In this document: positions 4,624 to 40,558 of the stretch, piece by piece
Position numbering within the stretch: position 1 is the stretch's first letter
Layout of the letters: every line of letters starts with the position of its first letter
Assembly: GCA_012271165.1 (NCBI GenBank)
Contig: JAAXGX010000142.1
Location: 33,398-96,137 of the forward strand
Source of the DNA: Vicinamibacteraceae bacterium
Lineage (GTDB): Bacteria > Acidobacteriota > Vicinamibacteria > Vicinamibacterales > UBA8438
Direction: 5' to 3'
DNA length: 62,740 nt
Program-made: the position numbers and the translations under genes
The notes under the pieces: model-generated
What the model was told of the DNA's origin: nothing
Seen by the model: the letters and a program-made list of their open reading frames with translations, nothing else
The model's database searches: none

Positions 4624-5931
4624 CTGCTGCCCGCGCGACCTGCGCCGCCGGCGGGGAGCCGCTCGCCGGCGGCTCCTGCGCCCGACGGCGGCAATCAACC
4701 GCTCGTACTTGTCCAGGATGGCCGGCCAACTGTAGTGGTCCCGGACGTAGCGTCGCCCGTTGCGGCCCATTGCCGCCCGCAGCTCGTCGTCGCCGACCAG
4801 CAGCTGCAGGCACTCGGCGAACTCGGCGCTGTCGACGTAGTACAACCCGGCGTTGCTCCGCTGGCAGTGGTCCGTCAGCACGTCGCTCCGGGCGTTGGCG
4901 ATGATCGGCGTCCCGACGGCGAGCGCTTCGAGCGCGGGCAGCGACAGGCTCTCGCGAGGCGACGGCGCGACGACGACCGTCGCGGCTTCCAGCGCTTCGA
5001 GCCGCTCGCTCTCCGTCAGCATGCCGGCGAATCGAATGAACGGCTCCTCGGGAATGCGCATGAGCTTGGCGCCCATGAGGACCAGCGTCGCCTCGCCGCG
5101 TTGCGCCGCATAGCTGCCGAAGTACTCGATGAGCTCCTCGCACCCCGTGCCAGCCTCGACGCGCTCGCCGTAGAGCGCGAGGGGTCCGTACAGCCGGTGG
5201 CGGCGCCTGAATACGGCGCCGCGCATCCGCGGCTGCCCGTCGGCGCCGCCCGCCGTCGGGGTCGCGCCGCTCGTCTCCGCGTCGGCCTCCGCTGGTGCGA
5301 GCTGCTCCGCATCGAGGTGCGGCGGCAGCTCCACGCCGCAACCCACGATCTCCTCGGCGTGCGCCTCGATCGAGAAGCGGCTGCGCAGGAAGCCGCGTTC
5401 GACGCCGGTGTCGTAGGCGATTCCCGCCGGCAGGGAGAACATCGGGCGGTAGGTGTCCAGACGGATCGCCGGCTCGTCCTGCGCCGTCGGCACCAGGATG
5501 CTGCGCCGCGGATCGACACGCAGACCGAGCACCGTGGGCGCGTACCGATAGCCGAAGAAGATGAGGGCGTCGTACGACTCGTGACGCTGCTCCAGGTACT
5601 CGATGAGCGCCGGGCACCACGGACCCTGCTGCTGCAGCCAGCTTTCCTCGTCCTGCGCGGTGTGGGGATTGGCGAAGATCCAGTCGGAGTACTCCTCGAA
5701 GGCCCCGGGGTCGCGGATCTGCGCGTTGGCGAATCGCCGCACGGTCACGCCGCGCACCCGGTCCGGTCCCGCGGGGTATGCGTTGTCCCAGGTCGCGGCG
5801 TCCCGGGCGCAGGTGGTCAGCACGTCGACGTCGTGGCGCTGCGACAGGTGCTCGGCTATCAACCGGCAGTGGTGCTCGGGGCCGGCTGCCAGCTCGGCGC
5901 CGTAGCGCTGAACGATGAGAGCGATTGTCAC
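4612..5931 (-). CDS. Glycosyltransferase, GT-B fold (family 1/4-like)
   Basis: C-terminal SPRESLSLPALEALAVGTPIIAN (E-x7-E-type region). Start placed at GTG 5931 (VTIALIVQRYG) because the 67 upstream codons of the ORF are Arg/Pro low-complexity. Its 3' end overlaps the regulator gene by 12 nt (convergent). Confidence 0.8.
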   Translation of the reverse strand: MTIALIVQRYGAELAAGPEHHCRLIAEHLSQRHDVDVLTTCARDAATWDNAYPAGPDRVRGVTVRRFANAQIRDPGAFEEYSDWIFANPHTAQDEESWLQQQGPWCPALIEYLEQRHESYDALIFFGYRYAPTVLGLRVDPRRSILVPTAQDEPAIRLDTYRPMFSLPAGIAYDTGVERGFLRSRFSIEAHAEEIVGCGVELPPHLDAEQLAPAEADAETSGATPTAGGADGQPRMRGAVFRRRHRLYGPLALYGERVEAGTGCEELIEYFGSYAAQRGEATLVLMGAKLMRIPEEPFIRFAGMLTESERLEALEAATVVVAPSPRESLSLPALEALAVGTPIIANARSDVLTDHCQRSNAGLYYVDSAEFAECLQLLVGDDELRAAMGRNGRRYVRDHYSWPAILDKYERLIAAVGRRSRRRAAPRRRRRSRGQQSTA

Positions 5932-6034
5932 GGCATCGAGACCGGCGCGCGGCGCGCGGCGGCAACGCGGCACCGCCGGAGCTGCGAGGCGGGTACGATC
6001 GGACGGCGTGGCACGCGCTGGGGCACCGCCGCCT

Positions 6035-6952
6035 TCACTGGCTCGGTGAGTCCGGCTCGCCGGACGGCTGCGCGGACGGCGGCGACTCGCTCTCGCTCGG
6101 GGGCTCGGAAGCCGGTTCCGGAGGCGCCGCATCGTCGGCGGGCTGATCGCCCGCGGCGGACTGCGCCCCGGCCGCGGACGTGCCCTCGGCGTCCGTGGCG
6201 GTGCGGGCGGATCGCCGCCTGCCCCGGCGTCGTCGTCGTCGCTTGGGCTCCGCGCCCTCGGCCTGCCCGTCGCCGCTGTCCGCGCCAGCCGCGGCCTGCA
6301 CCGCGTCCCGTCGCTGCGCGACGCCCTCCACGGCGCGGGCCTGCCGCTCGCTGAAGTCCAGTCGTCCGGCGACCGACTCGACGCGCGCCCGGTGGTTCTT
6401 CATGTCGACGGAGAGGCGGGTCATCTCGAGGACGAGATTGTTCATGACCTCGTAGTTCAGGGCGTCGATCTCCTCGCGGGCGGCGAGCCGCGAGTTGCTG
6501 AGCGCGAGGAGCCTGGCCACCCTGTCGACGAACTGCGCGTGCTGCGCGTTGATCTCGCGCTGGACCTGCAGGGCCTGCACGATCGGGTCGACGTCGAAGA
6601 AGAGCTTGAGGATCGGGCTGAGCAGCCTGCGGACGGGGTAGAGCAGCCACCCCAGGAACCCGCGCGAGGCGTAGATGCTCTGGGGACCGAACTCGAACGA
6701 CTCGGGCGCGGACGGCGCCGGCGCCGTATCCTGCTCCCGCCGCCGCTGCCGCGAGCGATCGACGAGTTCCGGGCGGGCCTTGGCCGGCTCCAGCAGCCCC
6801 TCGAGCTTCACGTTCGCCTGCTCCCGGACCTGCTGCTCGGTGTAGTCCTCGCCGTGCTTCTCCTTGATGCGGTCACGGACCTGCTCCATGATCCGCACCA
6901 CGTCGACGCCGTCTGACTGGGTGGAGAACTCGGACATGAGTTGCCCTGGCAA
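6035..6952 (-). CDS. Hypothetical protein: coiled-coil-like core, poly-Arg tract and Pro/Ser/Glu-rich tail
   Basis: 305-aa ORF with high third-position GC. Ordered N-terminal two-thirds (IMEQVRDRIKEKHGEDYTEQQVREQ..., NYEVMNNLVLEMTRLSVDMKNHRARVESV), then KRRRRRRGRRR and a PEPASEPPSESESPP tail. No family recognised. Alternative start MSEFS at 6937. Confidence 0.6.
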   Translation of the reverse strand: MPGQLMSEFSTQSDGVDVVRIMEQVRDRIKEKHGEDYTEQQVREQANVKLEGLLEPAKARPELVDRSRQRRREQDTAPAPSAPESFEFGPQSIYASRGFLGWLLYPVRRLLSPILKLFFDVDPIVQALQVQREINAQHAQFVDRVARLLALSNSRLAAREEIDALNYEVMNNLVLEMTRLSVDMKNHRARVESVAGRLDFSERQARAVEGVAQRRDAVQAAAGADSGDGQAEGAEPKRRRRRRGRRRSARTATDAEGTSAAGAQSAAGDQPADDAAPPEPASEPPSESESPPSAQPSGEPDSPSQ

Positions 6953-29561: not shown

Positions 29562-29969
29562 ATGTATTCCGTCACGAAGCGGATCGACTTCTGCTACGGC
29601 CACCGGCTGCTGGAGTACGAAGGCGTCTGCCAGCATCCTCACGGGCACAACGCGGTCGCCGAGATCGAGGTGCGCACCGAGTCGCTCGATCCGCGCGGCA
29701 TGGTCTGCGACTTCGGTGACATCAAGCGCATCATCAAGGGCTGGATCGACCGCGAGCTGGATCACAAGATGATTCTGCGGCGGGACGATCCGCTGCTCGA
29801 GCCGCTCCGCCGGCTGGGCGAGCCCGTGTTCGTCGTCGATCACAATCCGACGGTGGAGCATATCGCGAAGGTGATCTTCGATCAGGTTCGCGAACGAGGA
29901 TTCCCGGTCATACGCGTGACGGTGTGGGAGACTCCCACCTCGTTCGCGACATACGCGGCATCAATCTGA
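29562..29969 (+). CDS. queD: 6-carboxy-5,6,7,8-tetrahydropterin synthase
   Basis: FCYGHRL...HPHGHN Zn-binding His set, VCDFGDIK, VWETPTS. Confidence 0.9.
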   Translation: MYSVTKRIDFCYGHRLLEYEGVCQHPHGHNAVAEIEVRTESLDPRGMVCDFGDIKRIIKGWIDRELDHKMILRRDDPLLEPLRRLGEPVFVVDHNPTVEHIAKVIFDQVRERGFPVIRVTVWETPTSFATYAASI

Positions 29970-29973
29970 CTTT

Positions 29974-30067
29974 AGATGGGGCTGCGCCCCAAGCCCCCGG
30001 CGTCCGTTCGCGGGGACCCCTGCGCCCCGCGCCACTCCCGCCGAGGCGCGCTGTGCGCGCCTTGCGG
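29974..30067 (+). repeat. Copy C of the GC-rich intergenic repeat element
   Basis: Gap-free alignment to 12225-12318 (about 90 % identity by eye). The hairpin GGCGCGC-TGT-GCGCGCC is retained with a changed loop. Starts 5 nt after the queD stop. Confidence 0.85.
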
Positions 30068-30076
30068 CGGGGCGGT

Positions 30077-30126
30077 CATTTATTTTGAGCATTCAAAAGA
30101 TAAAGATGCTAGAGTCAAAATAAATG
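30077..30126. promoter_or_regulatory. Nested AT-rich palindromes: candidate metal-regulator (DtxR-family) operator upstream of the porin operon
   Basis: TTTTGA-GCAT-TCAAAA at 30083-30098. The outer inverted repeat is CATTTATTTTGA (30077-30088) with TCAAAATAAATG (30115-30126). The core recurs at 33775-33792. Confidence 0.5.
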
Positions 30127-31479
30127 CTTTCAATGCACCAAATTTCGGCCGGCCGCGCGGCTGGGCGCGTCGTGTGCGCGCTGGTGCTGTGCGCGTTCCT
30201 GACGCCGTCCGCCGCGAGCGCCGGGCCGGCGGACCGCGGCGCGGCGCCGGGCTGGCACGGCGCGCTGGCGAGCTACCTCACGGTCGGCGCGGCGGCCGCC
30301 GACACGCTGCGCCGCAACGTCCGGAGCATACTGCAGGCGTGGGCCCGCACGCCGGCCGCGCCGCCGGGCGCGCGCGGCACGGCGGTGGCGACGTACGGCG
30401 CCGGCCAGTCGCCCCCGCCCTCGGAAGGCACGTCGTCCCAACCGGTGACCGGGCCCCTCTCCGGGTACATGGACTTCCACTACAACAATCGGCAGAACGA
30501 GGACGCCGTTCTCGACTTCCACCGCTTCGTGCTGCTCTTCTCCCACGGCTTCTCGGATCGCATTCGATTCGTCGCCGAGCTCGAGCTCGAGCACGCGGTG
30601 GTCTCGAACGAGACCGAGGGCGAGCTGGAGCTCGAGCAGGCGTACGTCGACTTCCTCATCACGCGCGGCTTCAACGTGCGCGCCGGCATGCTGCTCACGC
30701 CGGTCGGCATCATCAACGAGCGCCACGAGCCGCCCGTCTTCCACGGCGTCGAGCGGCCGTTCGTCGACACGGTCATCATCCCGACCACCTGGTTCGACGC
30801 CGGCGTCGGCGTGCACGGCGAGGTGGGCCCGGGCGTGCGGTATCGCGTCTACGCGATGGCGACCCTGGACGCGTTCGGGTTCAGCGCCGAGGAGGGACTG
30901 CGCGGCGGACGGCAGAAGGGCGCAGAATCCAACGCGCGGAGCCTCGCGGGCACCGGCCGCATCGAGTACGTCGGCACGCCCGGGCTCGTGCTGGGCGCCA
31001 GCCTGTGGAGCGGCGAGACCGGCTTCAACACGTTGCGCTTCGACACCAGCCTGACGCTGGTCGAGTTCGACGGCCGCTACCGGCTCGGCGAGCTCGAGGC
31101 GCGGGGTCAGTACGCGCACGGCTTTCTGGACGGGATGGATCGGCTGAACCGGGCGGTCCAGCGGACCACCGGCGTCAGCCCGAACGTGGCCGAGGAGATC
31201 CGCGGCTTCTACCTGGAGGCTTCGTACTTCATCCTGCCGCACCCGGCGCCGAAGGAGCTGGCCGCCTTTCTGCGCTACGAGAACTTCGACACGCAGTTCG
31301 ACATGCCGGCCGGGTTCCGGCCGCTCAGGGAGTTCGACCGCGACGCGTGGGTGTTCGGCCTGACGTACTTCCCGGATCCCGACGTGGCCGTGAAGCTCGA
31401 CTACACGGTGCTGCGCAACCAGAGCGCGGTGATCGACGCGCCCGATTCCCTGAACCTGGGGCTGGGGTGGTGGTTCTGA
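30124..31479 (+). CDS. Outer-membrane porin-like beta-barrel protein
   Basis: Signal peptide (ALVLCAFLTPSAASA), alternating beta-strand pattern, C-terminal LNLGLGWWF aromatic terminus typical of OMPs. Resembles phosphate-selective porin O/P-like families (by recall). Confidence 0.75.
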   Translation: MLSMHQISAGRAAGRVVCALVLCAFLTPSAASAGPADRGAAPGWHGALASYLTVGAAAADTLRRNVRSILQAWARTPAAPPGARGTAVATYGAGQSPPPSEGTSSQPVTGPLSGYMDFHYNNRQNEDAVLDFHRFVLLFSHGFSDRIRFVAELELEHAVVSNETEGELELEQAYVDFLITRGFNVRAGMLLTPVGIINERHEPPVFHGVERPFVDTVIIPTTWFDAGVGVHGEVGPGVRYRVYAMATLDAFGFSAEEGLRGGRQKGAESNARSLAGTGRIEYVGTPGLVLGASLWSGETGFNTLRFDTSLTLVEFDGRYRLGELEARGQYAHGFLDGMDRLNRAVQRTTGVSPNVAEEIRGFYLEASYFILPHPAPKELAAFLRYENFDTQFDMPAGFRPLREFDRDAWVFGLTYFPDPDVAVKLDYTVLRNQSAVIDAPDSLNLGLGWWF

Positions 31480-31859
31480 GACGTCTCGGGTGGCGTGTGG
31501 TGCTGGCCGGGGTCGTGCTCGCGGGCGCCGGACCGGCCGGCTCGCGCGCGCTCGAGCCGCAGCCGGTGGTGGTGCCGGTGGTGGCCGAGCGCTTCTCGTT
31601 CACCCCGTCCGAGATTCGGGTGCCGGCCCGCGTGCCGGTCGAGCTGCGCATTCGCAGCGCCGACACCATGCACGGCTTCCGAATCGTCGGCCGCCAGGTG
31701 AACGTGGCGGTCCCGAAGCGGCGGCAGGGCGAGGCCGTGGTGCGGCTCGAGGCGCTGGCGCCCGGACGTTACCGCTTCGAGTGCTCGCGGCTGTGCGGCG
31801 CCGGACACCACTTCATGCGCGGCGAGATCGTGGTGGTCGCTTCCGACGGCAACCCATGA
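31470..31859 (+). CDS. Small membrane-anchored cupredoxin with a CuA-type (COX2-like) ligand set
   Basis: N-terminal hydrophobic anchor (WRVVLAGVVLAGAG). ADTMHGF then C-SRL-C-GAG-H-HF-M matches the H...C-x3-C-x3-H-x2-M CuA pattern. GTG start overlaps the porin stop by 10 nt. Confidence 0.7.
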   Translation: MVLRRLGWRVVLAGVVLAGAGPAGSRALEPQPVVVPVVAERFSFTPSEIRVPARVPVELRIRSADTMHGFRIVGRQVNVAVPKRRQGEAVVRLEALAPGRYRFECSRLCGAGHHFMRGEIVVVASDGNP

Positions 31860-33052
31860 GAACGCTCGCCAGCGCGGCGGTCGCGGGCCGCACGGCAATT
31901 CTGACGGCGCTTACGGCGTTCGCCGCCCCCGCGGCCGGCCAGCATCCCGTGGCGCCGGGCGACCCGCTGCCCGGCATCACGCCGGCCGAGTTCGAGGAGT
32001 TCCGGCTCGGCCTGGAGGACTTCCTGGAGGTCGAGACGGCGGAAGAGGGGCTCGGACCAGCCTACAACGCGACGAGCTGCGCCGCCTGCCACAGCGTGCC
32101 CGCCATAGGCGGCATCGCCCCGGTGGCCACCGTCCGCGCCGGCATCCGCGACGCCGACGGCACCTTCCGCGACTTCGACCCGGCGCGCGGGTCGCTGTTC
32201 CAGCTCTTCTCGATTCCGACGCACGGCTGCCAGTCGGTGATTCCGGCCGAGGCGAACGTCATCGCGCACCGGGTGCCGATTCCCCTGTTCGGCGCAGGCC
32301 TCGTCGAAGCGATAGCGGACGCGGACATACTCCGGCTCGATGACCCGCACGATTTGGACGGCGACGGCGTCAGCGGCCGGGCGGCGCTCGTCACCGACCG
32401 GGCAACCGGCGAGCTGCGCGTCGGGCGGTTCGGCTGGAAGGCCCAGGTCGCGACGCTGCTCGAATTCGGCGGCGACGCCTACCGGAACGAGATGGGCATC
32501 ACGAACGACCTGTTTCCCGCCGAGCTCACGTTCAACCTGACCGAGCTCCAGCTCCGCCTGTGCGATCCGCTCCCGGAGCCCGAGGACGTGCCGGAGCCGG
32601 GCACCGGCCGGCGGGGCATCGACAACTTCGAGTCGTTCATGCGGCTGCTCGCGCCGCCGGCGCGCGGCGACGTGACGGGGCCGGTCGCGCGCGGCCGGCA
32701 GGTCTTCGAGTCGATTGGCTGCGCCGCCTGCCATGTCCCGGCGCTGGCTACCGGTCCGAGCCTGAATCCCGTCTTCGACCGCCGCCCGGTGCCGCTCTTC
32801 TCCGACCTGCTGCTGCACGACGTGGGTACGGGCGACGGGATCGCGCAGGCGGCGGCCATGCCGAACGAGATCCGCACGCCGGCACTCTGGGGGCTGCGCC
32901 ACCGGCGGCCGCTGCTGCACGACGGCAGCGCGGCCACCATTCTCGAAGCGGTGGTCCGGCACGCGGGCGAGGCGCGGGCGGCCAGGGACAGGCTGCCCGA
33001 GCTGTCCGCCGCCGACCTCGCCGCCCTGATGGCCTTCCTCGAGTCGCTCTGA
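31856..33052 (+). CDS. Di-haem c-type oxidoreductase (DUF1111 / putative peroxidase family)
   Basis: Signal peptide, two CxxCH motifs (CAACHSV, CAACHVP), GRFGWKAQ and LWGLRHRRPLLHDG family hallmarks. ATGA overlap with the cupredoxin stop. Confidence 0.82.
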   Translation: MRTLASAAVAGRTAILTALTAFAAPAAGQHPVAPGDPLPGITPAEFEEFRLGLEDFLEVETAEEGLGPAYNATSCAACHSVPAIGGIAPVATVRAGIRDADGTFRDFDPARGSLFQLFSIPTHGCQSVIPAEANVIAHRVPIPLFGAGLVEAIADADILRLDDPHDLDGDGVSGRAALVTDRATGELRVGRFGWKAQVATLLEFGGDAYRNEMGITNDLFPAELTFNLTELQLRLCDPLPEPEDVPEPGTGRRGIDNFESFMRLLAPPARGDVTGPVARGRQVFESIGCAACHVPALATGPSLNPVFDRRPVPLFSDLLLHDVGTGDGIAQAAAMPNEIRTPALWGLRHRRPLLHDGSAATILEAVVRHAGEARAARDRLPELSAADLAALMAFLESL

Positions 33053-33067: not shown

Positions 33068-33763
33068 TCAAGCCGTCTGCTCGGTCGGCGCTACCTGCAG
33101 CTTGGCGGCAGCCCGCATCCCGATCATGATCTGACGTTCGCGCTTGCCGCGGACGACGACGTGGTCGGCCGCGGCGTCGCGGGACTCGACCCGAATGGCC
33201 TGGCCGGGCTTGAGGCCGCTGCTCTCGAGGAAGCGCAGGAACGCCGAATCCTGGTCAGTGACGCGGGTCAGGACCACCGGCGATCCGAGCGGGCAGGTCA
33301 GCAGCGTCTGGTACTCCGGCGTCACCATCGAGCCGCTCGAGTCGGGAATGGGGTCGCCGTGCGGGTCGGCGGCCGGGCGTCCGAGCATCGCATCGATCCG
33401 ATCGATGAGGCGGTCCGACGCCGCGTGCTCCAGGCGTTCGGCCTCGTCGTGCACTTCCGCCCAGCTCATCCCGAGCACCTTGACGAGAAACAGCTCGATG
33501 AGCCGGTGGCGCCGGAGCACGAGCGCGGCGAGCTTCTCGCCCGCGGGCGTCAACCGCACGCCCGCGTACGGCTCGTAGTCGACCAGTCCCGACTCGGCCA
33601 GCGTCTTGACCATGGTGGTCGCGGTGCCCGGCACCACGCCCAGCGCGCCGGCCAGACGCCCCATGGGGACGAGGCGATGCTCGGGACCCTGGGCGGACTG
33701 GGCCTGATAGATCGCCTTCAGGTAGTTTTCGACCGTGCTGGAGGGGAGCGCCATGACTGACAC
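33068..33763 (-). CDS. DtxR/IdeR/MntR-family metal-dependent transcriptional regulator with C-terminal FeoA/SH3-like domain
   Basis: ENYLKAIY, GVVPGTATTMVKTL HTH, metal-site region RRHRLIELFL...HDEAERLEHA...DPHGDPIP, C-terminal FeoA-like domain. Confidence 0.9.
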   Translation of the reverse strand: MSVMALPSSTVENYLKAIYQAQSAQGPEHRLVPMGRLAGALGVVPGTATTMVKTLAESGLVDYEPYAGVRLTPAGEKLAALVLRRHRLIELFLVKVLGMSWAEVHDEAERLEHAASDRLIDRIDAMLGRPAADPHGDPIPDSSGSMVTPEYQTLLTCPLGSPVVLTRVTDQDSAFLRFLESSGLKPGQAIRVESRDAAADHVVVRGKRERQIMIGMRAAAKLQVAPTEQTA

Positions 33764-33774
33764 TATGCTATAGT

Positions 33775-33792
33775 ATTTTGAGTTATCAAAAT
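33775..33792. promoter_or_regulatory. Palindrome ATTTTGA-GTTA-TCAAAAT: candidate DtxR-family operator in the divergent regulator / feo promoter region
   Basis: Perfect 7-bp arms read directly, in the AT-rich 80-nt gap between 33763 and 33844. Same core as 30083-30098. Confidence 0.5.
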
Positions 33793-33843: not shown

Positions 33844-34887
33844 ATGCCCGATCCGCGTTTCGCACTCCTCGTCTTCGCCGCGCTCAGCCTGATACTGGCG
33901 GCGCTGCTGTGGCCCGAGCGCGGTGTGCTCCCCCGCTTGCTGCGCCTCTGGAGGCTGGGCGAGCGCGTGCGGCTCGAGGATGCCCTGAAGCACGTGCTCA
34001 CCTGCCGGCAGAGCGGTCAGGCGTGCTCGCTCGACAGCCTGGCCGGTCGCCTGGAGGTGTCCACCGCGCGGGCCGCCGCGCTGCTCTCCCGGCTCGCCGC
34101 GATGGGGCTTGTCCGGATGGCGCCGGACGGACCGGTGCTGACGAGCGAGGGGGCGCAATCGGCCGTCCGCATCGTGCGCACGCACCGCCTCTGGGAGCGC
34201 TATCTGGCTGACCGCACCGGCATTCCGCCGGCGGAGTGGCACGAGCGGGCCGAGCGGATGGAGCATGCCCTCTCCGCCGAGCAGACCGACGCGCTCGAGC
34301 TGCGCCTGGGCTACCCGAGCTGGGACCCGCCCGGCGATCCGATCCCGGACGCCTCGGGGGAGATCCCGCCGGCTCCCGGCATCGAGCTGACGACGGTCGA
34401 ACCCGGCCGGACGGTCGAGATCGTGCATCTGGAGGACGAGCCGCGGGAGATCTACGACGCCCTGCTCGGGGAAGGGCTCGTCCTCGGCGGGCGACTCGAC
34501 GTCGTCGCGCGGGCCGACCGCGGCATTCGCGTGCGGGGAGCCGGCGGGCGCGAGTGGACGCTCGACGCCGTGGCGGCGCGCAACGTCAGTGTCCGTCCGC
34601 TGCCGGCGGGCGAGCGCGCCGCGGCGAGCTGGACGACGCTGCGGGACGCGCGGCCCGGGGAGACGGTGCGGGTCGTGGAGATCTCGCGCGCCTGCCAGGC
34701 CACGCAACGCCGCCGGCTGCTCGACCTCGGCGTGGTCCGCGGCACGCGCATCACGCCCGAGCTGGTGAGCGCGACGGGCGATCCGGTGGCCTATCTCATT
34801 CGCGGCGCGCTCATCGCGCTGCGGCGCCAGCAGGCGTCCTGGATCCGGGTGGAGCGCACCGGCGAATCGGTGGAGGCCGCCCGATGA
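33844..34887 (+). CDS. Membrane-anchored DtxR-like protein with two FeoA domains
   Basis: N-terminal TM helix (FALLVFAALSLILAALLW), DtxR-like HTH and dimerisation region (RTHRLWERYL...HERAERMEHA...DPPGDPIP). Two FeoA/SH3-like repeats follow (GRTVEIVHLED...; GETVRVVEISRACQATQRRRLLDLGVVRGTRI). ATGA overlap with feoB. Confidence 0.75.
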   Translation: MPDPRFALLVFAALSLILAALLWPERGVLPRLLRLWRLGERVRLEDALKHVLTCRQSGQACSLDSLAGRLEVSTARAAALLSRLAAMGLVRMAPDGPVLTSEGAQSAVRIVRTHRLWERYLADRTGIPPAEWHERAERMEHALSAEQTDALELRLGYPSWDPPGDPIPDASGEIPPAPGIELTTVEPGRTVEIVHLEDEPREIYDALLGEGLVLGGRLDVVARADRGIRVRGAGGREWTLDAVAARNVSVRPLPAGERAAASWTTLRDARPGETVRVVEISRACQATQRRRLLDLGVVRGTRITPELVSATGDPVAYLIRGALIALRRQQASWIRVERTGESVEAAR

Positions 34888-37091
34888 GCGCGGCGGCGGG
34901 CGCCTGCGGCGGCTGCTCGCAGCACCGCGCCGACAACCTGCTGCGACTGGGGCTGAACCCCGACAAGTGGGACATTCTGGTCGCGCTCGCGGGCAATCCG
35001 AACGTCGGCAAGAGCACGGTCTTCAACGCCCTCACCGGGCTCCGGCAGCACACCGGCAACTGGCCGGGCAAGACGATCGTGCGGGCGGAGGGCGCGTTCG
35101 CCTACGAGGGCCAGCGGCTCAAGATCGTCGACCTGCCCGGGACCTACTCACTGCAGGCGGAGAGCGCGGACGAGGAGGTGGCGCGCGACTTCATCCTGTT
35201 CGGCCGCCCGGACGTGACCGTCGTCGTGGTCGACGCGACGCGCCTGGAACGGAACCTCCACCTCGTGCTGCAGATACTGGACATCACGGATCGCGTCGTC
35301 GTCTATCTCAACCTCGTCGACGAAGCCCGGCGCCACGGCATCGCCGTGGACGCGGCGCGCCTGGAGCAGCAGCTCGGCGTGCCGGTGGTGAGCGGGGTCG
35401 CCCGCTCGAAGGTCGGCATCGACGACCTGCTCGCGGCGGCCTACCGCGTCGCCAGCGGCGAGATGGCCACCACGCCCTGCCGGGTGGCACGCCTGGACGA
35501 CCGCGTCGAGGAGACCGTCGCCGAGGTGACCCGGGTCGTGCGGGACGCGTTCCCCCGGGTGCCCAACGCCCGCTGGGTGGCGCTGCGCCTGCTCAACGGC
35601 GACGACGCCGTCGGCGAGGCCGTGCGCTCCGGCGAGCTCGGGCAGCTCGGCGACGCGGCCGACGCCCCGCCGGTCCCGGAGGCCGCCCGGGAGCACGTCC
35701 TGCGAACGGCCCGCCGCCGGCGGTGGGACCTGCCCGCCGATTTCCAGGACACGATCACGGAGCGGCTCTACGCCGCGGCCCAGGAGGTGGCCGACGGCAC
35801 GCAGATGCGCGGGCTGAAGCGGGCCGGCTTCGACTTCGACCGGACCCTCGACCGGCTGCTCACGAGCCGCTGGCTGGGATTCCCCCTGATGCTGGCGATC
35901 CTCGCGGCGGTCTTCTGGATCACGATCGAGGGCGCCAACGTCCCGTCCGGGATGCTGGCCGCGCTGCTCCTCGACACCGTGCACCCGTGGCTCAAGGGCC
36001 TCGGCGACGCGGCCGGGCTGCCCTGGTGGCTGGGCGGCTTCCTGTTCGACGGGGTGTACCTGGCGACGGCCTGGGTGGTGGCCGTCATGCTGCCCCCCAT
36101 GGCCATCTTCTTCCCGCTGTTCACGCTGCTGGAGGACTTCGGCTATCTGCCCCGGGTGGCCTTCAACCTCGACGCGCTCTTCCGGTCGGCCGGCGCGCAC
36201 GGCAAGCAGGCGCTCACCATGTGCATGGGCTTCGGCTGCAACGCGGCCGGCGTCGTCTCCACGCGCGTCATCGACAGTCCCCGCGAGCGTCTGATCGCCA
36301 TCATCACCAACAACTTCTCGCTGTGCAACGGCCGCTGGCCGACCCAGATCCTCATCGCCACGATCTTCATCGGCGCCCTGGCGCCGGTGCACCTCGGAGG
36401 CGTCGTCTCGGCCGCCGCGGTCGTCGGGATTGCCGTGCTCGGCATCATCACCATGTTCGGCAGCTCGTGGCTGCTGTCGCGCACGGTCCTCCGCGGCGAG
36501 GCGACGCGCTTCAGCCTCGAGCTGCCGCCCTACCGCCCGCCGCGCATCCTGCAGACGCTGTACACGTCGGTCATCGATCGGACGCTCATCGTGCTGGGGC
36601 GGGCCGTCGTCTTCGCGGCGCCCGCCGGCGCGGTCATCTGGCTCGTGTCGAACATCGACCTGGGCGGCGCCAGCCTGGCGGAGCACGGCGTCGCGTGGCT
36701 GGACCCGTTCGGGCTCCTCATCGGCCTCAACGGCGTCATCCTGCTCGCCTACGTGGTGGCGATTCCCGCCAACGAGATCGTCATCCCCACCGTGCTGATG
36801 CTGACCGTGCTCACGGCCGGCGGCGCCGGGGCAGGGGCGGGCGTGATGTTCGAGCTCGACGACATCGGCGCCACCGCCGATCTGCTGCGCGCCGGCGGCT
36901 GGACCCTGTTGACCGGCGTGAACCTGATGCTGTTCAGCCTCCTGCACAACCCGTGCTCCACGACCATCTACACGATCTATCGGGAAACGCGGAGCGCGGG
37001 ATGGACGACGCTGGCCACCCTGCTGCCGGTCGCCGTGGGCGTCACCGTCTGCTTCCTCGTGACGCAGGTGTGGCGGCTGGTCGCGACCTGA
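34884..37091 (+). CDS. feoB: Ferrous iron transporter FeoB
   Basis: G-domain LAGNPNVGKSTVFNALTG, DLPGTYSL, followed by a polytopic membrane domain with gate motifs. Confidence 0.93.
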   Translation: MSAAAGACGGCSQHRADNLLRLGLNPDKWDILVALAGNPNVGKSTVFNALTGLRQHTGNWPGKTIVRAEGAFAYEGQRLKIVDLPGTYSLQAESADEEVARDFILFGRPDVTVVVVDATRLERNLHLVLQILDITDRVVVYLNLVDEARRHGIAVDAARLEQQLGVPVVSGVARSKVGIDDLLAAAYRVASGEMATTPCRVARLDDRVEETVAEVTRVVRDAFPRVPNARWVALRLLNGDDAVGEAVRSGELGQLGDAADAPPVPEAAREHVLRTARRRRWDLPADFQDTITERLYAAAQEVADGTQMRGLKRAGFDFDRTLDRLLTSRWLGFPLMLAILAAVFWITIEGANVPSGMLAALLLDTVHPWLKGLGDAAGLPWWLGGFLFDGVYLATAWVVAVMLPPMAIFFPLFTLLEDFGYLPRVAFNLDALFRSAGAHGKQALTMCMGFGCNAAGVVSTRVIDSPRERLIAIITNNFSLCNGRWPTQILIATIFIGALAPVHLGGVVSAAAVVGIAVLGIITMFGSSWLLSRTVLRGEATRFSLELPPYRPPRILQTLYTSVIDRTLIVLGRAVVFAAPAGAVIWLVSNIDLGGASLAEHGVAWLDPFGLLIGLNGVILLAYVVAIPANEIVIPTVLMLTVLTAGGAGAGAGVMFELDDIGATADLLRAGGWTLLTGVNLMLFSLLHNPCSTTIYTIYRETRSAGWTTLATLLPVAVGVTVCFLVTQVWRLVAT

Positions 37092-37144: not shown

Positions 37145-37579
37145 ATGTCCGCGGAGCTGGATTCCTCCAACTGGTCGGGTGAGGGCGACTTCACGCGCAG
37201 GCTTATCGACTGGTGCGCCAGCCAGCCGGCGGTGGCGTTCGTGCGCGTCGAGGACGCGCCGTCCAGCCGCGCGGACGTCGAGTACAACTTCATCAGCAAC
37301 GAGATCTTCCTGCGGTTTCACACCCGGAGCCGCAGCGAGCGGCGGCGGCTGCTCGGGGTCGTGCCGCTGCGGCGCACGGTGACCGAGAAGGTCATGACGC
37401 TGGACCAGCTCGAGTCGCAGCTCTCGGGCACGGAAGACCTGGGGGAGCCGGACTACGCGGACGAGGGCATGATCCAGTACCTCCACACCGAGCGCGTCGT
37501 GCCCCCGTATCAGACCCGGGGCTACAAGCTGATCGAGCTGGTGCGGATCTACGAGGTCGGCACGCCGTCGCGGGCATGA
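37145..37579 (+). CDS. Hypothetical protein
   Basis: 144-aa ORF with strong third-position GC bias; no recognised motif; translationally coupled (ATGA) to the next ORF. Confidence 0.6.
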   Translation: MSAELDSSNWSGEGDFTRRLIDWCASQPAVAFVRVEDAPSSRADVEYNFISNEIFLRFHTRSRSERRRLLGVVPLRRTVTEKVMTLDQLESQLSGTEDLGEPDYADEGMIQYLHTERVVPPYQTRGYKLIELVRIYEVGTPSRA

Positions 37580-38034
37580 GGCCGTCTGGAGCCGGAACGA
37601 TGCCCATGCTTGCCCCCGCCGACGTTCGGCAGCGCGTGCTGCAGACGATCCAGGCCGCCCGCCGGGCCGCCGAGGCGCGCCGGGCGCGCGCCGCGGAGGC
37701 CGAGCGCGACGGCAGCGCGGTGCTGGCCGAAGTCGTGGCCCCGGCCTGCAGGGCCGTGGCGGCGGTGCTAAAGGCGGAGGGGTACGGATTCCGCGTGCTC
37801 ACCCCGGCTGGATCCGTGCGGCTGGCGAGGGACGCGGCGACCGAGGACTTCATCGAGATCGCCCTCGACACGACGCGCGATCCGCCGGCGCTCGTCGGCC
37901 GCGTCAGCCGCGCCTGGGGCCGGCGCGTCCTGGTCGACGAGCAGGTCGTGCGCGAGGCGCCGATCGGCGGGCTGACCGAGGACGAGGCCATCGCGATGGT
38001 GCTGGAGCGGCTCGGTCCGTTCGTCGAGCGGTAG
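37576..38034 (+). CDS. Hypothetical protein
   Basis: 152-aa reading frame starting at the ATG overlapping the previous stop (alternative MPMLAP start at about 37600). N-terminal Arg/Ala helix, no recognised family. Confidence 0.55.
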   Translation: MRPSGAGTMPMLAPADVRQRVLQTIQAARRAAEARRARAAEAERDGSAVLAEVVAPACRAVAAVLKAEGYGFRVLTPAGSVRLARDAATEDFIEIALDTTRDPPALVGRVSRAWGRRVLVDEQVVREAPIGGLTEDEAIAMVLERLGPFVER

Positions 38035-39436: not shown

Positions 39437-39547
39437 GACACCCAGTCTACCCGCACGGCGCCCTGGCACATGGGGTTTCCCCTTGGGGGATACAATGCGA
39501 CCCGACTCGCGCGCTCGCCTAGCGTGTGCTTTGCCGGGAGGGTACCG

Positions 39548-40558
39548 ATGGGACGTCGACTCGCCGCGTTCGTTGTGCTGGCGGGGCTGCTCGCCGCCGC
39601 GCCGCCGCCGCTGGAGGTGCACGCCGCCCAGGGTCCATCCTCGGGGCCGCTGCCGCGGACCCCCTGGGGCGACCCGGACCTGCAGGGCGTCTGGAACAAC
39701 AACACCGTGGTGCCGCTGCAGCGTCCCGCCGACCTGGCCGGCAGGGAAGCGCTGACCGCCGAGGAGGTGGCCGAGCGGTTCCAGCGCACGTCGTCGGGCC
39801 TGTTCCCGCAGGACCATTCCGATAGCGCGCCGCCGCGCGGCGGCGCCAGCTACAACGAATTCTGGTTCGAATGGGGCGAGGATACGAACCGCACCTCGCT
39901 GATCGTGGATCCGCCGGACGGCCGGCTGCCGCCGCTCACGGCGGAAGCCGCGGCGCGCCTCGCCGAGAACCCGTTCCCGTACGGCGGGCGCAGCGGTCTC
40001 GATTCGTGGGAGGGCCTCTCGCTGTTCGAGCGCTGCATCACGCGCGGGATGCCGGGCGGGATGCTGCCGGGCTTCTACAACCACAACCACCACATCCTGC
40101 AAACGCCCGGGCTCGTCGTCATCGTCCATGAGATGCTCCACGACGCCCGCGTCATTCCGCTCGACGATGGGGCCGATGCGCGCCGCCGCGTGCCGCAGTG
40201 GCTGGGCACGCCGCGCGGGCGCTGGGAGGGGGACACGCTCGTGGTCGAAACCACCGGCTTCAACGCGCGGGCGAACCAGCGCGGACCGGGCGGCGGCTCC
40301 GGCGCGGCGATGATCTTCACCGACTTCTCCGGCAGCCGGGGGGCGCGCCTGGTGGAGCGCTTCAGGCGCGTGGCCGACGACGTCATCGACTACCGGTTCA
40401 CGCTCGACGATCCCGCGGAGTTCGAGCATCCGTTCACCGTCGCGATCCCGATGCGCAAGACGGACGGCGTGCTGTTCGAGTACGCCTGCCACGAAGGCAA
40501 CTACGGGCTCGTGAACGCCCTGCGCTCGGCGCGCTACGCGGAGCGGGCCGAGCGGTGA
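39548..40558 (+). CDS. Secreted hypothetical protein
   Basis: Signal peptide (AAFVVLAGLLAAAPPPLEVHAA), globular non-repetitive sequence ending ...EYACHEGNYGLVNALRSARYAE. No family recognised. Confidence 0.65.
   Translation: MGRRLAAFVVLAGLLAAAPPPLEVHAAQGPSSGPLPRTPWGDPDLQGVWNNNTVVPLQRPADLAGREALTAEEVAERFQRTSSGLFPQDHSDSAPPRGGASYNEFWFEWGEDTNRTSLIVDPPDGRLPPLTAEAAARLAENPFPYGGRSGLDSWEGLSLFERCITRGMPGGMLPGFYNHNHHILQTPGLVVIVHEMLHDARVIPLDDGADARRRVPQWLGTPRGRWEGDTLVVETTGFNARANQRGPGGGSGAAMIFTDFSGSRGARLVERFRRVADDVIDYRFTLDDPAEFEHPFTVAIPMRKTDGVLFEYACHEGNYGLVNALRSARYAERAER

Follow-up and report, generated by a model that had tools for sequence, protein, structure and literature searches.

A porin, CuA-type cupredoxin and DUF1111 dihaem protein operon in Acidobacteriota as a candidate metal-starvation module with an operator apparently shared with feoB

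What could an outer-membrane porin, a stand-alone copper protein of the CuA type and a dihaem protein have to do with each other, and with the import of divalent metals? The question is raised by a stretch of 62,740 nucleotides (nt) of a Vicinamibacteraceae bacterium, hereafter the window (70% G+C), which corresponds to positions 33,398 to 96,137 of the forward strand of contig JAAXGX010000142.1 in the assembly GCA_012271165.1, a 3.7-Mb metagenome-assembled genome that is 72% complete. Here, three same-strand open reading frames between queD and a DtxR-family gene encode a porin, a cupredoxin and a protein of the DUF1111/DHOR family. According to our analysis, they form one translationally coupled operon of three exported proteins, and comparison of its upstream region across genomes points to common control with feoB. 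We consider it about an even chance that this operon is a metal-starvation-induced envelope module of Acidobacteriota, which is co-regulated with a FeoB-type importer and most likely serves it.

The operon and its operators

The porin gene occupies positions 30124-31479 of the forward strand and encodes 451 amino acids (aa). It is followed on the same strand by the gene of a CuA-type mini-cupredoxin (31467-31859, 130 aa, or 31470-31859, 129 aa) and by that of the DUF1111/DHOR dihaem c-type protein (31856-33052, 398 aa), which has an ATG start and a signal peptide. The initial annotation had described three overlapping genes, the first encoding a 451-aa porin ending in WWF, and had taken overlaps of 10 nt and 4 nt as the sign of one operon. 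Reading of the sequence bears this out, the porin terminus being GLGWWF, with the qualification that the porin/cupredoxin overlap is 10 nt from the GTG at 31470 and becomes 13 nt if the cupredoxin starts at the adjacent GTG, 31467. The cupredoxin and DHOR genes overlap in the 4 nt ATGA, which contains both the stop and the start. The end of the porin gene, GGG TGG TGG TTC TGA, reads GTG GTG GTT CTG A when shifted by one base, and the GTG at 31467 sits within the terminal GWWF-stop codons of the porin. MVVL is the N terminus of many cupredoxin homologues, in agreement with the start at 31467; they begin in this way because the cupredoxin start is embedded in the last codons of the porin, and the porin-cupredoxin coupling is therefore itself conserved. 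At the 5' end of the operon, no Shine-Dalgarno sequence is visible at the porin start, while a -10-like hexamer, TAGAGT, lies 7 nt 5' of the ATG (region 30099-30126); on these two grounds the operon mRNA may be leaderless.

The control region of the operon is short. The queD gene (29562-29969, recognized by a match to PF01242) ends with a terminator-like hairpin with a T-run (30058-30074, forward strand, from a terminator scan), which sets the 5' limit of a region of about 50 nt. The hairpin ends nine bases 5' of a 16-bp palindrome, TTTTGAGCATTCAAAA (operator 1, 30083-30098), located 26-41 nt 5' of the porin ATG, and any promoter of the porin operon must therefore overlap this operator. On the other side of the triplet, dtxR1 (33068-33763, reverse strand) encodes a soluble DtxR/MntR-family regulator with a C-terminal FeoA/SH3 domain. 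Divergent from it are dtxR2 (33844-34887, forward strand), whose DtxR-like product has an N-terminal hydrophobic, transmembrane-like helix and two FeoA domains, and feoB (34884-37091, forward strand), which encodes the co-regulated FeoB-type divalent-metal importer and to which dtxR2 is translationally coupled. Operator 2, TTTTGAGTTATCAAAA (33776-33791), lies in this divergent control region of dtxR1 and dtxR2-feoB and overlaps promoter-like hexamers for dtxR1. The presence of two DtxR-family regulators and feoB next to the triplet, and of the same palindromic operator core at both places, had been pointed out in the initial annotation; the former agrees with the profile matches of the neighboring genes, and the latter with the palindrome TTTTGAG-NNN-TCAAAA found at both operators, of which no copy is expected according to shuffled sequences. 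DtxR2 is part of the co-regulon and not of the triplet operon, and of the two regulators DtxR1 is the one that probably binds the palindromes.

Only two perfect TTTTGA-N4-TCAAAA sites exist in the 3.7-Mb assembly, and they are these two. Five same-genus genomes that are complete or nearly so contain one or two perfect copies each, always at this locus, and no site of the reversed control pattern; the position of operator 2 is kept in the same-genus genomes. Over a wider range, a palindrome of this type (type A, at most two mismatches) is found 5' of the porin gene in 65 of 90 loci, and nine further loci without type A, eight of them from other classes, have at the 5' side of the porin gene a second type of box, TTTAGnnTAnnCTAAA (type B). 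According to our own reading, the type B core, TAGGCTAA, together with its flanks, agrees with TTAGGTTAGGCTAACCTAA, the iron box of mycobacterial IdeR, in 13-15 of 19 positions. In genome G170, the second-best genomic match to type B is found about 75 nt 5' of an orthologue of a DtxR-FeoA fusion gene, which is followed by feoB, while in genome G092 a hybrid box, TTTTGAGTATACTAAA, precedes the same kind of DtxR-FeoA gene by about 70 nt. Judging from these sequences, the triplet and the DtxR-FeoA/feoB operon share an operator in three lineages, each of which has its own version of the box, and this is the main new result of the present analysis. Since the sharing recurs in three lineages, the link to metal uptake is firmer than it would be from adjacency, and the metal-type regulation proposed in the initial annotation gains support both from the operator footprint across loci and from the feoB co-regulon. 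FeoB is not always adjacent to the triplet; the two are linked via the shared operator.

Conservation and loss of the triplet

The initial annotation had made its proposal dependent on the conserved co-occurrence of the three genes, and this is what we found. The full triplet is present, in the same order, in 16 of 20 loci from relatives, and one more locus is cut by a contig end. When public genomes were scanned with one genome per species, the same order was observed at 66 of 71 loci, nearly all of which are labeled Vicinamibacteria or Acidobacteriota. An even sample of 301 Acidobacteriota genomes yielded strong cupredoxin matches (E < 1e-30) in 27 of them, about 9%. The porin-cupredoxin-DHOR order was retained in all ten of those matches that were checked from other acidobacterial classes (G+C 44-69%), where the other neighbors of the triplets are unrelated to one another. 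At this phylum distance the identities are 40-61% for the cupredoxin, 52-64% for DHOR and 50-62% for the porin, for which reason we dropped the idea that the cupredoxin is more conserved than its partners, as might be a sign of a tight complex. The gap between the porin and cupredoxin genes reaches about 300 nt in distant members.

Five of the 71 loci present the cupredoxin alone. The one that was checked, in genome G020, turned out to be no real exception, since its porin and DHOR genes are neighbors separated by 12 nt, beside the two DtxR genes, and the cupredoxin gene is found about 14 kb off (G020:C1:363885-364256), beside a ThiF-rhodanese gene. This move of the cupredoxin gene out of the operon is seen in one Vicinamibacterales lineage (L028-L032, ~4700-6400), and in L028, L030 and L032 the gene lies between a ThiF-rhodanese (MoeB-like) gene and what looks, by eye, like an IscR/IscS/IscA cluster; the adjacency of porin and DHOR genes after relocation was checked in G020 only.

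Within the genus, a cupredoxin orthologue was identified in 8 of 13 genomes, and the eight loci fetched from them all hold the full triplet, while the five genomes without the cupredoxin are also without an intact DHOR gene. In two of these genomes, G003 and G010, queD directly abuts dtxR1, and in G002 a 3' remnant of DHOR (52 residues, 90% identical) persists between queD and dtxR1 (L134:3505-3660, G002:C11) as a deletion scar. Taken together, the remnant and the queD-dtxR1 junctions indicate that the three genes were lost in one deletion. As for the surroundings of the triplet, an orthologue of dtxR1 is located at most 6 kb away in 51 of the 66 triplet loci. At least one of two small downstream proteins is encoded in 44 of the 66, including loci without feoB, in which the two directly follow dtxR1. 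In the window, these proteins of 144 and 152 aa, which have no Pfam match, are encoded by coupled genes 3' of feoB (37145-38034, forward strand).

The three proteins

The cupredoxin frame reads MHGF ... CSRLCGAGHHFM. The full CuA-like ligand pattern that had been read from it holds up, since all five predicted CuA ligands, namely H68, C105, C109, H113 and M116 (numbered from the start at 31470), are present and are invariant in 30 homologues. The protein matches Pfam Cupredoxin_1 and COX2 as well as several CuA-bearing models, all far under their full-length cut-offs. Among solved structures, its best match is the CuA domain of the Thermus thermophilus ba3 oxidase subunit II (PDB 2CUA, 1EHK) together with engineered variants of it (E 2e-15 to 1e-13), with 38-40% identity over about 90 residues. 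In the sequence alignment the five side-chain ligands correspond residue for residue, the H...CX3CX3HX2M pattern is identical in the two proteins, and each of them consists of one N-terminal hydrophobic segment and a minimal cupredoxin domain after it. Structure modeling, which had been suggested as a check of the copper site, returned a CuA-domain fold with a complete ligand set. In the AlphaFold2 model, the block-mean predicted local distance difference test (pLDDT) value is 91-94 for the core (residues 31-100), about 75-77 for the C-terminal ligand-loop region and below 50 for residues 1-22, and the top Foldseek matches of the model are Thermus CuA domains (probability 1.00, 38-40% identity). 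Since the ligand set is invariant and the sequence and fold matches both lead to Thermus CuA domains, sequence and model assign the protein to the CuA-type domains rather than to the type 1 blue copper proteins. The initial annotation had called the protein membrane-anchored; its N-terminal hydrophobic stretch is short and fits an anchor as well as a cleaved signal peptide.

Unlike the ba3 domain, however, the window protein is encoded without an oxidase subunit I, between porin and dihaem genes, and it features a KRRQ loop which is an insertion with respect to Thermus CuA and is invariant in the 30 homologues. It was also considered, and rejected, as a CoxB proper: TIGR02866 (CoxB) scores 48.5 bits, below its cut-off of 147.7, the gene is flanked by those for a porin and DHOR at 66 of the 71 loci scanned, and no oxidase gene accompanies it. 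The protein would be a rare CuA center outside oxidases and N2O/NO reductases, and with about 95 folded residues it would rank among the smallest CuA scaffolds. Distant mini-CuA paralogues (35-41% identity) were observed in other Acidobacteriota (L103:5998-7797 and L104:5902-7781), directly 3' of sigma-54 response-regulator genes and 5' of DUF5777 "membrane bound beta barrel" genes. A small CuA-type cupredoxin is therefore found beside an outer-membrane barrel of a second family in these neighborhoods; at another locus, L109, the gene 3' of a mini-CuA paralogue encodes a monohaem cytochrome c.

The third gene had been described as encoding a dihaem protein of the DUF1111 type with two CAACH motifs, and indeed DHOR matches PF06537 at 151.9 bits (cut-off 22) over profile positions 211-499 and contains both haem motifs (C75-C78-H79 and C289-C292-H293), which are invariant in 26 homologues. 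The other invariant residues include H123, C125, M213, C236, H321, H355 and H369. With the family profile, similarity to bacterial dihaem peroxidases, MauG and hydrazine synthase gamma extends only over their C-terminal domain, with E values of 1e-4 to 8e-3. When the profile is aligned to 3o5c, the invariant H369 of DHOR falls on the Met of AVNTMAD, which we take to be the haem ligand of bacterial peroxidases. Because this His fills the column of the Met ligand, the C-terminal haem is predicted to be His/His ligated, and the same alignment gives DHOR no His/Met electron-entry haem of the kind typical of bacterial cytochrome c peroxidases (CCPs). Hence DHOR is comparable with the dihaem CCPs, MauG and hydrazine synthase gamma in its alignable C-terminal haem domain, and it is well established that a dihaem enzyme can have a small copper protein for its redox partner, as CCPs do; the window operon encodes proteins of both kinds. 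It differs from CCPs in that the similarity is weak and confined to that domain, in the invariant His that stands for Met, and in additional invariant Cys and His residues (PTHGCQS, C236). We know of no peroxidase activity for any DUF1111 protein. A modification of the cupredoxin by DHOR, in the manner of MauG or MbnH, was judged unlikely since the mature cupredoxin has no conserved Trp; the porin may be a target of such a modification. DHOR also has an invariant DPxDxDGDGVSGR segment (residues ~160-175, 32330-32380) similar to calcium-binding loops of the DxDxDG type; Ca2+ is required by bacterial dihaem peroxidases.

The porin is a distant member of the Porin_O_P family (PF07396), which it matches at 28.4 bits (cut-off 20.9) over profile positions 11-173 of 370 only, and a comparison by sequence with solved structures gave no meaningful match. 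A signal peptide and a poorly conserved Ala/Pro-rich linker up to about residue 110 precede the conserved barrel, whose invariant C terminus, GLGWWF, is a C-terminal aromatic beta-signal. The sequence contains no CxxCH motif, and its only Cys residues are in the signal peptide. In the conserved columns of 87 orthologues, 32 acidic positions stand against 22 basic ones, and two strands are acidic ladders, ELELEH and ELELEQ; this charge pattern may point to selectivity for cations rather than phosphate. A function as a phosphate porin, which the name of the Pfam family would suggest, was set aside as less likely, as the conserved charges give it no support and no Pho-type element was noticed. 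The orthologue in G092 is split into two overlapping frames (L093:6620-7527, G092:C10), by a frameshift or an assembly error.

Possible functions and the metal served

If the operon is a starvation-induced module that serves FeoB, a repressor of the DtxR/MntR family, with Fe2+ or Mn2+ bound, would occupy the palindrome, which fills the promoter region of about 50 nt, and metal scarcity would switch the operon on. The acidic porin would then admit a divalent cation or a small metal complex across the outer membrane, the DUF1111 dihaem protein would be a periplasmic catalytic redox enzyme, and the CuA protein would act as its dedicated electron partner and connect it with the pool of respiratory cytochrome c. 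Electrons enter cytochrome oxidase and N2O reductase through such a CuA center. The two proteins are read here as a two-subunit periplasmic oxidoreductase because, to our knowledge, CuA is in every known enzyme an electron-transfer center and never catalytic. Such a pair would keep the metal reduced, or make it so, either by reduction of Fe(III) or Mn(III) complexes or by removal of the H2O2 that oxidizes Fe2+ and drives Fenton chemistry, and FeoB would import the reduced ion. Reduction of ferric or Mn(III) chelates and removal of H2O2 are both compatible with the feeding of a ferrous importer, and the predicted His/His haem may also allow the opposite electron flow, from DHOR to CuA. We hypothesize that the module in this way sets the iron redox state ahead of FeoB. 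Acidobacteriota are among the most abundant and least cultured soil phyla, and the module is possibly part of their Fe or Mn acquisition in oxic soil.

The claim that no described system has this exact composition is in line with our search, as no description of an operon of porin, CuA cupredoxin and DUF1111 was found in the literature searched. The recurrence of DUF1111 in iron-linked operons, which the initial annotation had brought up, has precedent in the imelysin (EfeO-like)/DUF1111/imelysin/DUF1513 operons of Proteobacteria, such as the Fur-regulated PA4370-PA4373 of P. aeruginosa (PMC3143127; bioRxiv 10.1101/072470). These are the closest described systems, and they resemble the window operon in being compact, metal-linked envelope operons that are built around a DUF1111 protein and include a partner associated with the outer membrane. 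The window operon, instead, swaps both partners and the type of regulator: it has neither imelysin nor DUF1513 but a Porin_O_P-like barrel and, in addition, a stand-alone protein with a full CuA ligand set, and in place of Fur a DtxR-type palindrome controls it and the linked importer is FeoB. The likeness to EfeUOB is looser and lies in the Cupredoxin_1-type domain of EfeO, which is among the fold matches of the window cupredoxin. No imelysin/EfeO gene (PF09375) turned up in this genome (72% complete) or in five near-complete carriers, and the FTR1/EfeU permease (PF03239) is absent from this genome and from three of the five near-complete carriers and is never adjacent where present; on the strength of these absences an oxidase-permease mechanism of the Efe/Ftr type is unlikely. 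For Bradyrhizobium japonicum, one account (PMC10760861) describes outer-membrane entry, periplasmic reduction and then FeoAB, the same order of entry, periplasmic redox step and Feo import as proposed here, but with FsrB, an unrelated inner-membrane ferric reductase, and with entry by TonB-dependent receptors. The Cyc2 and MtoAB/PioAB conduits differ in that a haem motif is in, or fused to, the barrel or that the partner is multihaem, whereas the window porin has no CxxCH and its partner only two haems. What the window operon has in common with a DtxR/MntR-family regulon is, by sequence, the adjacent regulator gene of that family and the conserved palindromic operator. While DUF1111 proteins occur in iron-linked operons of many phyla without an assigned reaction, the one encoded here is paired with one small and spectroscopically tractable candidate redox partner, and mixing the cupredoxin with DHOR would give a direct biochemical handle on the direction of the electrons and on the substrate.

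Several observations weigh against the reading as a module that feeds FeoB. The predicted His/His haem would have a lower potential, which makes electron flow from CuA to the haem less obvious, and the AlphaFold2 model of DHOR (26-sequence alignment) is of low confidence, with a mean pLDDT of 45.6. None of the regulator and feoB genes of the window is located within about 6 kb of the triplet in the ten loci from other classes, and no boxed feoB was found in G222 and G182. Feo can do without the triplet, which 5 of the 13 genomes of the genus lack. The transporter is of the Feo type, while the metal site of the regulator is of the O/N type (ENYL ... HDEAERLEH) and more similar to that of Mn sensors than to that of IdeR/DtxR. 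Moreover, the NRAMP gene has no upstream box in this genome, the only one checked. Finally, all the carriers found are metagenome-assembled genomes, and the whole evidence is comparative. The NRAMP result bears on the regulator as well: a global Mn or Fe regulator was rejected, since the genome contains only the two sites of this locus and one weak site elsewhere and its NRAMP gene is without a box; the regulon is thus a local one and gives no clue to the metal.

Of the alternatives, a manganese module survives best, although we deem it unlikely. It would have DtxR1 as an MntR-type sensor, the porin as an Mn2+ channel and the FeoB homologue as an Mn2+ importer, and the CuA and DHOR proteins would reduce Mn(III) complexes or provide a haem/copper peroxidase backup when Mn-dependent defenses fail. 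MnoP is a metal-starvation-induced outer-membrane Mn2+ channel of Bradyrhizobium, to which the window porin would be similar in function. The best solved relatives of DtxR1 include ScaR and SloR, which are Mn-dependent regulators, well ahead of IdeR/DtxR; the two top entries, 5zr4 and 8pvt, are presumably M. tuberculosis MntR and an Mn-dependent regulator of D. radiodurans, and the best NCBIfam model is that of Thermus MntR. DtxR1 has a Glu at the position of DtxR Cys102, and its soluble homologues from other classes carry the Asp/Glu set EDYL ... EAExLEH, which is typical of Mn sensors, but in DtxR1 of the window an Asn replaces the Asp ligand. Fur-family genes, present in every genome of the genus, are available for iron, and the conserved charges of the porin are mainly acidic. 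Yet an NRAMP/MntH homologue occurs in all 14 genomes of the genus, and its lack of a box in the window genome is unexpected for an Mn regulon. Mn import by a FeoB homologue has one precedent, reportedly the FeoB2 of Porphyromonas. The co-regulated importer is FeoB and one variant of the operator resembles the IdeR box, both of which we count for iron, and a redox pair is easier to understand for iron than for Mn2+, which is stable in air. Roughly weighed, iron seems slightly better than an even bet as the metal served, manganese a serious second, and any other metal improbable.

We regard it as rather improbable that the three proteins are only loosely associated, with DHOR a plain peroxidase that has the cupredoxin as donor, the porin a general channel, and the metal link a matter of synteny within one order. 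Azurin/pseudoazurin-type cupredoxins do donate to dihaem peroxidases (Paracoccus and Pseudomonas CCP), the C-terminal domain of DHOR is homologous to that of CCP, and queD and the two small downstream genes are also syntenic without an obvious functional link. However, the gene order of the triplet survives phylum-level divergence while all its other neighbors change, its genes are lost together and retained together, and two different operator variants both tie the operon to feoB.

A copper-based conduit across the outer membrane, which would be a new type of bacterial reductive metal-assimilation pathway, seems to us very unlikely. In such a conduit, a complex of the porin with the CuA protein, fed by DHOR, would pass electrons to extracellular Fe(III) or Mn(III,IV) in starved cells, and the released cation would return through the same pore to FeoB, as in a counterpart of Cyc2 or MtrAB with copper for haem. 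The conserved coupling, with the cupredoxin start embedded in the last codons of the porin, is consistent with it, as are the mini-CuA paralogues adjoining the DUF5777 barrels and the co-regulon with a ferrous importer. The porin, however, has no redox cofactor motif, a Porin_O_P barrel may be too narrow for a domain of about 95 aa, and the two genes are separated by up to about 300 nt in distant members and by 14 kb in G020.

The poorest prospects are those of an oxidative pathway, in which Fe(II) would be oxidized to supply Efe/Ftr uptake or, as the rus chain of Acidithiobacillus does, to gain energy: the parts formally resemble that chain (porin-cytochrome, cupredoxin, dihaem cytochrome), c-type haems are the electron donors of CuA in all enzymes known to us, a low-potential His/His haem would favor flow from DHOR to CuA, and G222 has the same box 5' of a multicopper oxidase gene, but imelysin/EfeO and FTR1/EfeU are missing as described above, no haem motif is present in the porin, the reduced ion is what the co-regulated transporter imports, and DtxR-type repression implies expression at scarcity, the opposite of lithotrophy, so that the analogy with Fe(II) oxidation drawn in the initial annotation is disfavored.

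Two further occurrences of the boxes were observed outside the triplet and feoB loci. The sole other near-match to the palindrome in the window genome, CTTTGAGAGATCAAAA (G000:C71:12249-12264), lies between the genes for a PQQ-type (pyrroloquinoline quinone) dehydrogenase and a small secreted protein and may be due to chance; it is followed by a gene whose N-terminal region resembles, by eye, that of a secreted protein of the window (~39500-40558). In G222, a genome from another class, a second type B box with one mismatch, TTTAGTCTTGGCTAAA, is located about 25 nt 5' of the multicopper oxidase gene (L119:485-1477; G222:C1, ~5.155 Mb), whose product has by eye an N terminus like that of twin-arginine translocation (Tat) substrates and which is followed by the gene for an unassigned hydrophobic protein.

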